Positions 39-50,531 of a stretch of DNA of 64,000 nt are shown in pieces; position 1 is the first letter of the stretch; every line of letters starts with the position of its first letter. Origin of the DNA: Escherichia phage DCP2; the sequence record OR780565.1; one strand, 5' to 3'. Made by a program: the position numbers and the translations under genes. The notes below the pieces were generated by a model. The model ran no database searches. It saw only the letters and a program-made list of their open reading frames with translations, and was not told where the DNA came from.

Positions 39-1496
39 TTATGCTGGTGATAAAAAGGTAGAAAGTAGTACCCATTCGCCGTCTTTACGAACGTAAGCTT
101 GGCCATCTTTTGGAGCTTCAGGAATATAACCCGCTTCTTGTAGAGCTTGAACGCTGCTCTGTAAAGAGGATATATTGTCTTTAGCTGTATTTACTTCATG
201 CGTGACTGCCGCAATGTTAGTTTCATTCGTTTTTATAGAATTAGTTAATCCTCGTTCTTCAACAGTTGATCCGTCAGGATTATTTCCATTTATAAGTGAA
301 GTAAGTTCAATAACTTGACCTTTAATTCCTGTTCTATTATTTCCTATTTCAACTTGTATATTTTGAACATTATTGTTTAAAACTGAAACTTCTCCTTCAA
401 GCACTGAAACTTTATTTAATAGAGATCCAGAAGGAGACGGTTGTCCTCCGCTGGAGTCAGTTCCAACAATTTGATTTAACCACGAAACATTCGCTCTTAA
501 ACCAGACGAAGTGTTTTCACCAACAATTCCGTTTAAAGACTCAATAGAAGTTGTGTGATTTTTAATTTTTCCTTTAATACTAGAAGGAATATCATCTGAA
601 CCTATAGAAGTTTCAATAGCCGTTAAGCGCTGTTTAACACCTTCACTCTGATTTAATTCATTATTAATAGATTCAATGCTACTTTTGTTATTATTAATTT
701 CTGTTATTATAGAAACATTTTCTGGGTATCCAATAGAAGATTTAATTTCTGCTATATCAGAATTTATTAAAGTTTGTTTATCATCTATAGTGTTTAATCT
801 ATTATAAATATTTGGTCCAAAATCTACTGGTTTATTACCAAGTTCATCGCGTAATTTACCAACTTCAACCGTCAATGATCCTACGTCAGATTCAGTAAAT
901 TTATTTTCTAATTCACTTAAACGAATGCCTTGTGAAGATAATAATGTACTATTTGTTATTATTCTATGTTTCATTCCTGTGCTAGCATTACCAACAACAG
1001 GAAGACCGTTAATGTCTTGGCCAGAATATTGTCCTAATTCCTGTTTAATCCACAATAAATCATTTCTAATTGTTCTATAAACAGAGTTTTCTTCATCATT
1101 AAATGGACCTATATCAGCAATAATTTTGTCAACTGTATTATTAGTTCCAGTTAATATATCAGTGTGTTCACTGGTAAGTGTCTTTAAATTCGATATGTCA
1201 TTTTTATTAACACTGATCTGCGATAGTGCTTCTATATCTCCTGATACATCTAAAACTCCTTGAATTGTTTTAATATCTTTCTGTGATGTTTCAATGGCAG
1301 TTTTAAGAATTCCCACATTTTCATCAAGAACTTCGACGTTTTTAAACACGGAAACAATTGGTCTATTCATTGATCCATCATTTCCATACTTAGTACTAGC
1401 TCCTAATATTTCTTCACCATTTTTAATCCATGAAATACGTTCCTGACCTTCGTCAGGAACGCTATCAACAAAAGGTAACTCTTTTAATTCAATCAT
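39..1496 (-). CDS. wac: Fibritin (whisker/neck protein)
   Basis: 485-aa ORF; C-terminal foldon-like [27 protein letters not shown]; follows gene 12 as in T4. Confidence 0.9.
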
Positions 1497-46731: not shown

Positions 46732-46995
46732 ATGTTTAAAGTATATGGTTATGATAGCAACATCCACAAATGTGTGTATTGCGATAATGCAAAACGTCTT
46801 TTGACTGTGAAGAAACAGCCGTTTGAATTTATCAACATTATGCCGGAAAAAGGTGTTTTTGATGATGAGAAAATCGCTGAGCTTCTGACTAAACTGGGTC
46901 GTGATACTCAAATCGGATTGACGATGCCTCAGGTATTTGCTCCTGACGGAAGTCATATTGGTGGATTTGACCAATTGCGGGAATACTTTAAATGA
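46732..46995 (+). CDS. nrdC: Thioredoxin/glutaredoxin NrdC
   Basis: 87 aa; CVYC redox motif; matches my recollection of T4 NrdC. Confidence 0.9.
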   Translation: MFKVYGYDSNIHKCVYCDNAKRLLTVKKQPFEFINIMPEKGVFDDEKIAELLTKLGRDTQIGLTMPQVFAPDGSHIGGFDQLREYFK

Positions 46996-47207
46996 TGCTT
47001 GAAGGAACTGATTATATCCATGACTACCGCGGAAGCGCGGTATATGTAGGTGATGAGGTTGCAGTTTATTATGGATATGGAACTTTGATGACAGCAAAGG
47101 TTATTCAAATTAAAAATAATCGTGCTAAACTCGAAGTTTATTATTCTAATGGTGAAAAGTCTATTTCTAAGTGGAAATACGGCGATTGTATGGTCAAACT
47201 GGGGTAA
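46992..47207 (+). CDS. Hypothetical protein in the 49.3 position
   Basis: 71-aa ORF coupled to nrdC. Confidence 0.4.
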   Translation: MMLEGTDYIHDYRGSAVYVGDEVAVYYGYGTLMTAKVIQIKNNRAKLEVYYSNGEKSISKWKYGDCMVKLG

Positions 47208-47209
47208 AT

Positions 47210-47380
47210 ATGATTTACGATATTAATGTAGCAAGAACTCCATCAATGGTTACTATTCCAGCTGAAGAATTAGATCGTCTTCATAAAATTGAAGAACTTC
47301 TTTGGGAAATTGAATCTGATTTGCCATCAGGACTAGAATCCTGGATTGATTATGAAGAACTTAATAAGCTTCGGGGTTAA
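47210..47380 (+). CDS. Hypothetical protein in the 49.2 position
   Basis: 56-aa ORF from an internal Met. Confidence 0.35.
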   Translation: MIYDINVARTPSMVTIPAEELDRLHKIEELLWEIESDLPSGLESWIDYEELNKLRG

Positions 47381-47502
47381 ACCTTGGTGGGCGGTTAGAT
47401 GGGAAACTGTAGAGCCAGAGCCGGAAGAACCGGTTTACACTGATGAAGAAACAGTATATAATGAACCTACAATAAATGACTTAATTGATATGGAGATGGG
47501 AC

Positions 47503-47988
47503 ATGATTACAGTAGATAAGTGGTTTAGAATTAATCGTGTTGATACAGGGCTATGTAATTACTGGCCGGAACTTAGTGCAGGTACTGTCTTTAAAGTTCG
47601 TGAACTTGCAAAAGAATGCGAAGATGATATAGAACCTGATACTGGAATTATTGAAATTGAACTTTCCGACGGAAAGATTATTAACATCTATGATAAGCCA
47701 ATTACATACTGGTGTTTGTGGAATACTGAATCCGTTGAAAATGGCGAAATTGAAGAAGTTGTAGAGAGAACTAGCCAAGATGTTCAGAAGCCTAAAGCCG
47801 CTTTTCAAGGTGAACGTATTTCATACGCATTAGCTAAATTAGCTGCGCAAGAAAATAACGATGGCTATGAAGGTAACCTGATGCAAGCTGCCGCAGAGTA
47901 CATTGAATGGCTTGAAACTCAAATTTCTTTTTCTGACCAAAAGATTCGGCAATATAAGCGATTGCATCAAATGTTTTACAATACTTGA
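47503..47988 (+). CDS. pin: Probable host-protease inhibitor Pin
   Basis: 161 aa from internal Met, same length as T4 Pin; position between nrdC and 49. Confidence 0.5.
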   Translation: MITVDKWFRINRVDTGLCNYWPELSAGTVFKVRELAKECEDDIEPDTGIIEIELSDGKIINIYDKPITYWCLWNTESVENGEIEEVVERTSQDVQKPKAAFQGERISYALAKLAAQENNDGYEGNLMQAAAEYIEWLETQISFSDQKIRQYKRLHQMFYNT

Positions 47989-48199
47989 AAAAACTCAAAA
48001 TTCTTTTTCTGACAGGACATTTTAATGAAAACCGAATTGGTTTATACTGAAAAGTTAAATGGCGGTAAGGTTTGGAAACTTTTTATTAAAGGACATTCTA
48101 CGGACCCTCATATGACCACTTGCGTAGGAACCTATTCTCGTCCTACTAAAAAGATGATTCGACAGTATAAACGATTGCATCGAATGTTTTACAATACTT
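47914..48199 (+). repeat. Direct duplication of the pin 3' end flanking an inserted segment
   Basis: R1 47914-47937 vs 47989-48012; R2 47941-47986 vs 48151-48199 (about 85-95 percent identical). Confidence 0.7.
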
Positions 48200-48201
48200 A
48201 A
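48025..48201 (+). CDS. Small protein with duplicated Pin C-terminus (49.1 position)
   Basis: 58-aa ORF; C-terminal IRQYKRLHRMFYNT duplicates the Pin C-terminus. Confidence 0.4.
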   Translation: MKTELVYTEKLNGGKVWKLFIKGHSTDPHMTTCVGTYSRPTKKMIRQYKRLHRMFYNT

Positions 48202-48243
48202 AAATAATAAATACCCTTATCTATTTAAGGTAAGGGTTTTATT

Positions 48244-48717
48244 ATGTTATTGACTGGCAAATTATATAAAGAAGAAAAACAGAAATTTTATGATGCGCAA
48301 AACGGTAAATGCTTAATTTGCCAACGAGAACTAAATCCTGATGTTCAAGCTAATCATCTTGATCATGACCATGAATTAAATGGACCAAAAGCAGGAAAGG
48401 TACGTGGATTGCTTTGTAATCTATGCAATGCCGCAGAAGGTCAAATGAAGCATAAATTTAATCGTTCTGGCTTAAAGGGACAAGGTGTTGATTATCTTGA
48501 ATGGTTAGAAAATTTACTTACTTATTTAAAATCCGATTACACCCAAAATAATATTCACCCTAACTTTGTTGGAGATAAATCAAAGGAATTTTCTCGTTTA
48601 GGAAAAGAGGAAATGATGGCCGAGATGCTTCAAAGAGGATTTGAATATAATGAATCTGACACTAAAACACAATTAATAGCTTCATTTAAGAAGCAGCTTA
48701 GAAAGAGTTTAAAATGA
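48244..48717 (+). CDS. 49: Endonuclease VII (Holliday junction resolvase)
   Basis: 157 aa; MLLTGKLYKEEKQKFYDAQNGKCLICQREL... matches my recollection of T4 endo VII. Confidence 0.9.
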   Translation: MLLTGKLYKEEKQKFYDAQNGKCLICQRELNPDVQANHLDHDHELNGPKAGKVRGLLCNLCNAAEGQMKHKFNRSGLKGQGVDYLEWLENLLTYLKSDYTQNNIHPNFVGDKSKEFSRLGKEEMMAEMLQRGFEYNESDTKTQLIASFKKQLRKSLK

Positions 48718-50531
48718 CAATTGAAAAAGAAATTGAAGGATTGATTCATAAAACTAATAAAGACCTTTTGAACGAGAATGCTAATAAAGATTCTCGTGTT
48801 TTTCCAACTCAACGGGACCTTATGGCTGGTATTGTGTCTAAACACATTGCCAAAAATATGGTCCCGTCTTTTATTATGAAAGCGCATGAAAGCGGAATTA
48901 TTCATTTTCATGATATTGATTATTCCCCTGCTCTTCCATTTACTAATTGCTGTTTAGTAGATTTAAAAGGAATGCTTGAGAACGGATTTAAGCTTGGTAA
49001 TGCGCAGATTGAAACTCCTAAATCAATTGGCGTTGCTACTGCAATTATGGCACAAATTACTGCGCAAGTTGCTTCCCATCAATATGGCGGAACGACTTTT
49101 GCTAATGTAGATAAAGTACTTTCTCCTTATGTTAAACGCACCTATGCAAAACATATTGAGGATGCAGAAAAATGGCAAATCGCTGATGCGTTGAATTACG
49201 CCCAGTCTAAAACAGAAAAAGACGTATACGATGCATTTCAAGCTTATGAATATGAAGTAAACACTCTCTTTAGTTCAAACGGACAAACGCCTTTTGTAAC
49301 AATTACATTTGGTACGGGAACTGACTGGACTGAACGAATGATTCAGAAAGCAATTCTGAAAAATCGTATTAAAGGTCTTGGTCGTGATGGGATAACTCCT
49401 ATTTTCCCTAAGCTTGTTATGTTCGTTGAAGAAGGTGTTAATCTTTATAAAGACGATCCGAACTATGATATTAAGCAGCTTGCTCTAGAGTGTGCAAGCA
49501 AAAGGATGTATCCTGATATTATTTCAGCTAAGAACAATAAAGCTATCACCGGCTCATCTATTCCTGTTTCTCCAATGGGTTGCCGCAGTTTCTTGAGCGC
49601 GTGGAAAGATTCAACCGGTAATGAAATTCTTGATGGACGTAATAATCTTGGTGTTGTAACACTGAATCTTCCTCGTATTGCGTTGGATTCTTATATTGGA
49701 ACACAGTTCAATGAACAGAAATTTACTGAATTGTTCAATGAGCGAATGGATTTATGTTTTGAAGCTTTGATGTGTAGAATTAGTTCCTTAAAAGGAGTTA
49801 AAGCGACTGTTGCTCCTATTCTTTACCAAGAAGGTGCATTCGGGGTTCGTCTTAAACCTGATGACGACATAATTGAGTTATTTAAAAACGGTAGAAGTTC
49901 AGTGTCTTTAGGATACATTGGTATTCATGAATTGAATATTCTTGTCGGTCGTGATATTGGACAAGAAATTTTAACTAAAATGAATGCTCGTCTTAAACAG
50001 TGGGCTGAAAGAACTGGGTTTGCTTTTAGTTTGTATTCGACTCCTGCTGAAAACCTTTGTTATCGCTTCTGTAAACTTGATACAAAAAAATATGGAAGTG
50101 TAAAAGATGTTACCGATAAAGGATGGTACACTAACAGTTTCCATGTTTCAGTAGAAGAAAATATTACTCCGTTTGAAAAGATTTCTCGCGAAGCCCCATA
50201 TCATTTCATTGCGACAGGTGGTCACATTTCTTATGTTGAACTTCCTGATATGAAAAATAACCTAAAAGGTCTTGAGGCTGTCTGGGATTATGCTGCACAA
50301 CATTTAGATTATTTTGGTGTTAACATGCCAGTAGATAAATGTTTTACGTGTGGAAGTACCCATGAAATGACTCCTACTGAAAACGGGTTTGTTTGTTCTA
50401 TTTGTGGAGAAACTGATCCTAAAAAGATGAACACAATAAGAAGAACTTGTGGTTATTTGGGAAATCCGAACGAACGTGGATTTAATCTCGGCAAAAATAA
50501 AGAAATCATGCATAGGGTTAAACACCAATGA
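48714..50531 (+). CDS. nrdD: Anaerobic ribonucleotide reductase large subunit (uninterrupted)
   Basis: 605 aa; C-terminal Cys cluster and glycyl-radical region RRTCGYLG; no intron. Confidence 0.9.
   Translation: MTIEKEIEGLIHKTNKDLLNENANKDSRVFPTQRDLMAGIVSKHIAKNMVPSFIMKAHESGIIHFHDIDYSPALPFTNCCLVDLKGMLENGFKLGNAQIETPKSIGVATAIMAQITAQVASHQYGGTTFANVDKVLSPYVKRTYAKHIEDAEKWQIADALNYAQSKTEKDVYDAFQAYEYEVNTLFSSNGQTPFVTITFGTGTDWTERMIQKAILKNRIKGLGRDGITPIFPKLVMFVEEGVNLYKDDPNYDIKQLALECASKRMYPDIISAKNNKAITGSSIPVSPMGCRSFLSAWKDSTGNEILDGRNNLGVVTLNLPRIALDSYIGTQFNEQKFTELFNERMDLCFEALMCRISSLKGVKATVAPILYQEGAFGVRLKPDDDIIELFKNGRSSVSLGYIGIHELNILVGRDIGQEILTKMNARLKQWAERTGFAFSLYSTPAENLCYRFCKLDTKKYGSVKDVTDKGWYTNSFHVSVEENITPFEKISREAPYHFIATGGHISYVELPDMKNNLKGLEAVWDYAAQHLDYFGVNMPVDKCFTCGSTHEMTPTENGFVCSICGETDPKKMNTIRRTCGYLGNPNERGFNLGKNKEIMHRVKHQ

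Follow-up and report, generated by a model that had tools for sequence, protein, structure and literature searches.

Bacteriophage T4 has provided classic examples of gene rearrangement, among them in-frame deletion fusions (rII r1589, which joins A to B) and rII partial tandem duplications that segregate by recombination. The locus described here, in the interval between pin and gene 49 of a T4-like phage, resembles both. As in the r1589 fusion, an in-frame deletion joins two adjacent cistrons, and as in the rII duplications, a partial tandem duplication with short homologies is lost through recombination between the repeats, here leaving hybrids in phages PST and fPS-65. Unlike the T4 laboratory mutants, however, this is polymorphism of natural origin, fixed across hundreds of isolates, and the repeats are just ~24 and ~46 nt long and have diverged. 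The product of pin, PinA (Pfam PF10465; UniProt P07068 in T4), is an inhibitor of the host Lon protease, and according to papers cited in PMC8835725 the T4 protein inhibits both the ATPase and the proteolytic activity of Lon. The second gene belongs to the DUF7279 family (PHROG 3272), which includes RB69 ORF087c, JS98 orf76 and genes annotated 'RB32 ORF078c-like'; no mention of DUF7279 was found in the literature.

The window, by which we mean the whole stretch of 64,000 nt analyzed, comes from Escherichia phage DCP2 (OR780565.1), a Tequatrovirus. Across 1.4 kb around the locus it is 100% identical to ECO07P4, ECO07P5 and a51. Its pin equals T4 PinA in length and architecture, with differences at three of the last 15 residues (QKIRQ in the window, RMIQQ in T4). 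While the window keeps a donor-type gene downstream of pin, T4 does not: only 41 nt, with no gene among them, separate pin from 49 in that phage. The features are collected in Table 1. There are further differences from T4 nearby. Positions 46992-47380 hold a DUF7205 ORF (71 aa) and a 69-aa ORF where T4 has 49.3 and 49.2, making this another variable segment; the 69-aa ORF has a weak, sub-threshold likeness to T7 gp5.9 (E 0.004). On the other side of gene 49, nrdD (48714-50531) is a single uninterrupted 605-aa ORF, without T4's group I intron carrying I-TevII.

Table 1. Features of the pin-49 interval and its neighborhood (positions in the window unless another locus is named).
Feature	Position	Strand	Remarks
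nrdC	46732-46995	+	first in the local gene order
DUF7205 ORF and 69-aa ORF	between nrdC and the 49.1 homologue	+	follow nrdC in the local gene order
T4 gene 49.1 homologue	47346-47519	+	88% identity to T4 gp49.1; upstream of pin, overlapping its start
pin (PinA, host Lon protease inhibitor)	47503-47988	+	161 aa; chimeric form, with native body (codons 1-146) and foreign tail (codons 147-161)
Block A	47914-47937	+	native pin codons ...ETQISFSD, directly before the fusion junction; GAAACTCAAATTTCTTTTTCTGAC
Block B	47941-47988	+	15 codons (KIRQYKRLHQMFYNT) and TGA stop, derived from a DUF7279 gene (its 3' end); close to the GRNsp7/LF73P3 allele
Junction of B with A'	47984-47995	+	CTTGAAAAAACT; same in 4/4 sampled window-type genomes
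Block A'	47984-48025	+	non-coding relic of a native pin 3' end; its own frame reads LEKTQNSFSDRTF and stop
58-aa ORF (intact DUF7279 gene)	48025-48201	+	RB69 ORF087c / JS98 orf76 family; Pfam PF23945, PHROG 3272
Block B'	48151-48201	+	native DUF7279 3' end (KKMIRQYKRLHRMFYNT and stop); source type of block B and its partner in homologous-recombination deletions
Hairpin, then T-run	48213-48237	+	terminator-like, between the 58-aa gene and gene 49; from terminator scan and RNA fold
Gene 49 (recombination endonuclease VII)	48244-48717	+	157 aa; downstream anchor of the variable interval
Upstream DUF7279 paralogue (RB69-like genomes)	L053 2329-2499; L018 695-865; L004 (RB69) ~846-962		directly upstream of pin

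Self-alignment confirms, to within 1-3 nt, the two repeat blocks that a first-pass annotation of the window had pointed out. Block A (47914-47937) matches 47990-48013 at 22/23 positions over the aligned core, and block B (47943-47991) matches 48156-48204 at 44/49; ungapped extension of the B pair (repeat family D1) gives 83% identity over 63 nt at a spacing of 213 nt. Local alignment scores are 21 for A and 36 for B, as against maxima of 16 and 17 in 1000 shuffles of the downstream 252 nt. As expected of a partial tandem duplication, the direct repeats A...B/A'...B' share order and orientation, and there is one novel junction, ACTTGAAAAAACTC, common to the window, ZN18, APTC-EC-2A and ES12. 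A 53-nt probe spanning this passage from B to A' is at least 80% covered in 105 phage records. The protein tails are also as first described, ...QKIRQYKRLHQMFYNT before the stop of pin and ...KKMIRQYKRLHRMFYNT before that of the 58-aa ORF, and the ~140 nt between A' and B' are the 5' part of this ORF. Two features of the ancestral boundary between pin and DUF7279 survive in block A', the AGGA Shine-Dalgarno (48014-48017) and the TAATG in which stop and start overlap; the block is identical to the live pin end of phage SP1.

The annotation had read these repeats as the birth of a gene: a duplication of the pin 3' end downstream, together with ~140 nt of unrelated insert, would have built a new 58-aa ORF with a C-terminus borrowed from pin. 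Within the window alone the structure is symmetric, and either copy could be the original. The ORF belongs, over its full length, to a known family with the tail as part of its profile, matching Pfam DUF7279 at E 3e-17 (62.7 bits for a cut-off of 24.5, profile positions 1-53/53) and PHROG 3272 at E 3.4e-34 (positions 1-58 of 59). A tblastn search with it finds matches in 357 phage records, ~194 at 80% identity or more, ~78 at 60-80% (relatives of JS98, VR7 and VR26) and ~85 below 60% (relatives of RB69). In RB69 and JS98 its place is precisely the gap between a pin-type gene and gene 49, and the same place next to pin and just 5' of gene 49 is occupied in SP1, PEC04, G50, GRNsp7 and others. 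In the fetched loci of RB69, JS98 and SP1-type Tequatroviruses it stands directly upstream of gene 49 with no repeat structure. Comparison of the pin-49 intervals shows that relatives carry a conserved, independently evolving small gene free of repeats, the very finding that the annotation had named as its refutation, and intact homologues, which gene birth would confine to genomes with the duplication, are present in RB69, JS98 and the Tequatroviruses with a short pin (class I below). The window ORF shares with the RB69 and JS98 genes its full-length family match, its position and its invariant tail. It differs from them in overlapping no live pin stop; a 37-nt relic of the old pin end precedes it instead.

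The family itself evolves as a protein-coding gene under purifying selection, with a median pairwise dN/dS of 0.16 over 16 unique alleles. The tail is its most constrained part (dN/dS 0.058 for codons 39-57, 0.21 for body codons 1-38), and since dS is high (tail dS ~1 per pair), the constraint acts on the DUF7279 protein rather than on the DNA. Across genera the tail RPTKK.IRQ.KR.HR.F is invariant. The AlphaFold2 model of the 58-aa protein has three beta-strands and a C-terminal helix (residues 42-56) to which the shared tail corresponds, the model being only moderately reliable (pLDDT 81.7 for the best of five, 52-63 for the other four). DUF7279 is a very small family: a profile search of 1.84 billion representative proteins yields ~5 genuine clusters, with the tail on no other protein class, and members are found solely in T4-like phage records and unannotated metagenome proteins. 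A PDB sequence search with the family profile and a PADLOC search gave no match. By all these comparisons, the 58-aa ORF is an ordinary, old and conserved phage gene, probably still translated from its own predicted Shine-Dalgarno. The idea that it was newly made from pin sequence deserves practically no credence.

The profiles of pin point the same way. The window protein matches Pfam Inhibitor_I24 (PF10465) at E 2e-47 (160.8 bits, cut-off 27) over residues 4-141, and PHROG 2167 spans residues 1-146, residues 147-161 matching positions 44-58 of PHROG 3272 instead. The C-terminal 15 residues of pin lie outside the PinA/Inhibitor_I24 family, whose models stop at residue 141-146. Among 44 gp49-anchored T4-like loci (gp49 identity 50-100%), the tail IRQYKRLHQMFYNT is limited to Tequatrovirus pins; most other pins end in ...QL.FSD(R/K)AF or something close to it, and at the more distant loci there is mostly nothing between pin and gene 49. 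Outside Tequatrovirus a single RB69-like contig has a pin with the tail, by an independent fusion. Protein searches among close relatives return pins of two lengths, 161 aa with the tail and 148 aa with the ending SFSDRAF, and in RB69, JS98 and SP1 a short pin is followed by the DUF7279 gene. The polarity of the transfer is clear from this comparison: because the small gene belongs to a family conserved with its tail, has repeat-free homologues and keeps that tail under strong constraint, while pin models lack it, pin took the tail from the 58-aa gene. That the arrangement stems from illegitimate or unequal recombination, and that two genes have a C-terminus in common by copying, stands; the direction of copying and the newly built gene do not. 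On sequence evidence it is pin that is the borrower, and the canonical T4 PinA, a model protein, is itself a chimera, its C-terminal helix coming from a neighbor that has since disappeared from T4.

Four allele classes can be read directly at the pin-49 interval of Tequatroviruses. Class I (SP1, PEC04, G50, GRNsp7, LF73P3, UFV06) has a 148-aa pin ending in ...SFSDR(A/T)F, whose TAA stop and the ATG of the 58-aa gene run into each other as TAATG. Class II (T4, T2, T6, phiD1 and others) has a 161-aa pin without the 58-aa gene. Class III (the window, ZN18, APTC-EC-2A, ES12) has a 161-aa pin, the 37-nt relic A' (...EKTQNSFSDRTF and stop) and the intact 58-aa gene. In class IV (ECP2301, CT01) the pin is 148 aa long and the 58-aa gene is missing, the deletion lying between GTTTTAAT and GTTTTACAAT; ECP2301, CT01 and the metagenome contig L054 have all lost the small gene cleanly, by deletion at microhomologies. 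By BLAST coverage criteria, some 20 Tequatrovirus loci having been read base by base, class III numbers 105 records (junction probe), classes I and III together 187 (hence ~82 of class I), class II 300, and class IV ~70, the last figure coming from 6/60 evenly spaced rows. Chimeric pin is the majority form, with roughly 405 of ~560 records.

Class I and class II differ by a 137-nt in-frame deletion. Since the frames of pin and the 58-aa gene are offset by the TAATG overlap, a deletion of 137 nt brings both into frame. The first step of the history we propose would be a class I ancestor in which a 148-aa pin (...SFSDR(A/T)F) had its stop overlapping the start of a 58-aa DUF7279 gene with the C-terminal helix ...RPTKKMIRQYKRLHRMFYNT. 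In the second, leading to class II, the deletion would have removed the last three codons of pin (two sense codons and the stop) along with the first 43 codons of DUF7279, placing pin R146 in frame with DUF7279 M44 and giving a 161-aa chimeric PinA with no small gene. The T4 junction, GAC CGA/ATG ATT, still joins pin D145-R146, with the CGA of class I pins, to DUF7279 M44. The corresponding sequences of APTC-EC-2A (CAA ATG ATT CGG), T4 (CGA ATG ATT CAG) and the window (CAA AAG ATT CGG) can each be reached by single substitutions from one inferred fusion sequence. On these sequences, the most parsimonious history is one fusion behind all chimeric pins. Separate fusions for the T4 and window tails are less parsimonious, all chimeric pins being 161 aa long and linked by single substitutions via APTC-EC-2A.

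After capture, the tail seems to have fared differently on pin than on its donor. It shows five nonsynonymous changes on pin (R146Q, M147K, R149Q, R->Q, H->N) vs. one synonymous, at residues that are invariant in the DUF7279 gene. These counts are small, but they suggest relaxed constraint, and on pin the tail has the look of a passenger that is tolerated. For the 161-aa pin AlphaFold2 gives a poor model (pLDDT 64, below 50 in the tail) that is uninformative on docking of the tail to the body. No mapping of the Lon-binding region was found in the PinA papers, nor were biochemical data on the tail found in the literature. For work on PinA structure and Lon inhibition, this means that the last 15 residues of the protein assayed in every published study come from outside the family, and that the natural 148-aa pins are ready controls.

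The repeats of class III can be followed in their products. PST and fPS-65 have the T4 architecture, but in each the pin tail is a hybrid of B and B', and the crossover points differ: the PST tail turns to B' sequence directly after GATTCG, and the fPS-65 tail after TATAAG. Both end in the stop of B's partner, TAA then AAAATAATAAA. Judged from these hybrids, the two phages come from window-type genomes, each having lost the 213-bp unit independently through homologous recombination, which demonstrates at the sequence level that the repeats are live recombination substrates and that class III can generate class II.

How class III itself arose is a matter of junction and allele identity. The single shared junction ACTTGAAAAAACTC consists of the end of B, including its TGA, and the start of A', and both parental sites contain CTTGAAA. 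At synonymous sites, B of the window matches the GRNsp7/LF73P3 allele (CGG CAA TAT AAG) and B' the SP1 allele (CGA CAG TAT AAA), so that B and B' look like two different pre-existing alleles. This argument is suggestive, given that T4-like phages exchange short patches freely. The shared CTTGAAA at the junction, taken with the allele matches of B, B' and A', thus favors an unequal crossover between class II and class I genomes. In this third step, a mixed infection would most likely have allowed a crossover at or near the common CTTGAAA, leaving a whole class I unit (the A' relic, the intact DUF7279 gene and B') downstream of the chimeric pin and creating the repeat pairs A/A' and B/B'. Fourth, crossovers between B and B' would delete the 213-bp unit and restore a T4-like architecture with hybrid tails.

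Two points count against details of this sequence. The junction has three A's beyond what a simple in-register crossover at CTTGAAA would give. Moreover, a tandem duplication in one genome followed by deletion in the first copy would yield the same structure, which bears on the order from class II to class III. Duplication could indeed have come first, a class I [A-DUF7279-B] unit having been tandemly duplicated, or copied by a double template switch in replication, before the first copy lost its ORF body to give the window type; all T4-type genomes would then be later B x B' deletion products. A junction between two copies of CTTGAAA is what unequal sister exchange is expected to leave, and PST and fPS-65 prove the passage from class III to class II by B x B' recombination. 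On the other hand, this course takes at least three events and an as yet unobserved intermediate with two ORFs, and only 2/357 records have two places for the gene, by tblastn count alone. A duplication would have started B and B' off as identical copies, but at four synonymous sites the two agree with different class I alleles still in existence. Codon 146 is still the ancestral CGA in T4 and T2, whereas the derived CAA occupies it in every class III genome sampled, and pure-B class II tails would need crossovers confined to the last ~20 nt. We regard duplication first as the less probable course, one that still merits some weight. That this is an ordinary, unstable scar of recombination in the variable stretch between pin and 49 of a Tequatrovirus, formed by the four steps from class I through fusion, unequal crossover and back-deletion, is in our judgment highly probable, with the order of the second and third steps and the exact mechanism of the crossover being what we infer.

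Downstream of the repeats, the hairpin at 48213-48237 folds at -18.2 kcal/mol (z -4.4), and its 3' arm holds the Shine-Dalgarno of gene 49. It is kept in all allele classes and in RB69. Being preserved in this way, it sets the 3' limit of tolerated deletions. A hairpin in the T4 leader reportedly controls translation of gene 49. Together with the strong conservation of the hairpin and of the AATAAATA motif just downstream, RB69 included, this general knowledge could suggest that block B itself is kept because it acts in cis on gene 49, as DNA or as RNA (a promoter, a terminator or an RNA structure), the shared protein tail being a by-product. Variation of B' between genera is, however, mostly synonymous, at the tail dS and dN/dS given above, which speaks for constraint on the protein. 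ECP2301, CT01 and L054 are without B entirely and keep the hairpin region alone; therefore B is not needed in cis. There is also no promoter-like site in B: a sigma-70 scan finds none, and by eye the spacing is unfit for a MotA-box middle promoter. A cis-acting role for B is very improbable.

Fusions between the two genes recur in another lineage. In one RB69-like contig (Logan SRR20302901; P0038 in L053), sequence has been deleted at a 6-nt ACGTTT repeat, so that pin (...EYLERR) reads on in frame into the nine final codons of ORF087c (FHRDFYNVY, then stop); the compared junction-side sequence is that of RB69 except for one mismatch in the gene 49 leader. As read from this single Logan contig, the fusion is independent of the Tequatrovirus one and analogous to it. 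A second fusion joins the genes the other way round. Directly upstream of pin, RB69-like genomes have another DUF7279 paralogue, a divergent one (MQVKLLYR...RPTKRQLRKAKRSHRNFYREY), so that DUF7279 genes stand on both sides of pin. In the 191-aa DUF7279-PinA fusion P0037 (L054 2501-3076, L055 1510-2085), identical in two ENA metagenome samples, a 1-nt deletion (TATTGATATG -> TATGATATG) removes the stop of the upstream paralogue and joins it to the N-terminus of pin, and in both samples the downstream DUF7279 copy is cleanly deleted. In sequence terms, the pin-49 interval is a recurrent indel site. The RB69 annotation ORF089c (39 aa) seems to truncate the upstream paralogue. In another RB69-like metagenome contig (L018, 1280-1461), the downstream DUF7279 gene is apparently frameshifted in a T-run, leaving a 39-aa ORF, which would make it a pseudogene unless the sequence is in error.

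Such recurrence raises the question of whether capture of the tail was adaptive. The C-terminal helix of DUF7279 might be a module, for example one contacting Lon or a partner, that improved or retargeted PinA, with DUF7279 acting in the same pathway. Two independent in-frame tail fusions (in Tequatrovirus and in the RB69-like P0038), a full-length paralogue on the N-terminus of pin with the same sequence in two samples (P0037), DUF7279 paralogues on both sides of pin in RB69-like genomes and the majority status of the chimeric pin would all fit. The tail nevertheless looks relaxed rather than conserved on pin, with its five nonsynonymous changes vs. one, and its pLDDT stays below 50 there. 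Pins of 148 aa without the tail are common and viable, one third of deletions are in frame by chance, and the literature offered no biochemical data. An adaptive capture is, on balance, doubtful. Equally doubtful is the broader proposal that DUF7279 proteins are partners of PinA in handling host Lon, or Lon-directed peptides in their own right, with a basic, aromatic C-terminal helix as the active part and the in-frame captures selected. If it were true, the biochemically studied T4 PinA would owe part of its behavior to a helix from a gene that T4 has lost. The repeated pin-DUF7279 fusions may reflect functional coupling or mere proximity.

A single locus can here be seen in all its states, i.e. 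the ancestral arrangement, the in-frame fusion, the fusion with a restored donor-type gene, the clean loss of the small gene and the hybrid back-deletions. It shows microhomology-mediated and short-repeat recombination remodeling the variable regions of T-even phages, and it replaces a story of gene birth with that of a conserved small gene and a chimeric model protein. The small gene should be called neither 49.1 nor "protease inhibitor". The name 49.1, given to it in the first-pass annotation, belongs to the ORF at 47346-47519, upstream of pin as in T4; both are small ORFs near pin, but they are different genes with no similarity. In APTC-EC-2A (L052, OK274152, 801-977) the 58-aa DUF7279 gene is annotated 'host protease inhibitor', likely an annotation error, the label having probably spread from the tail it has in common with pin. 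An ENA contig encodes a 142-aa protein (P0030) in which a Peptidase_S24-like C-terminus follows the first 83 residues of pin, perhaps an artifact of assembly, perhaps a genuine recombinant. In Shigella phage CT01 (L050, OK018184), a 42-aa ORF at 919-1047, between the 148-aa pin and gene 49, starts like gene 49 (weak Endonuclease_7 match, E 6e-4) and looks like a partial tandem duplication of the 5' end of gene 49, another rearrangement at this site.
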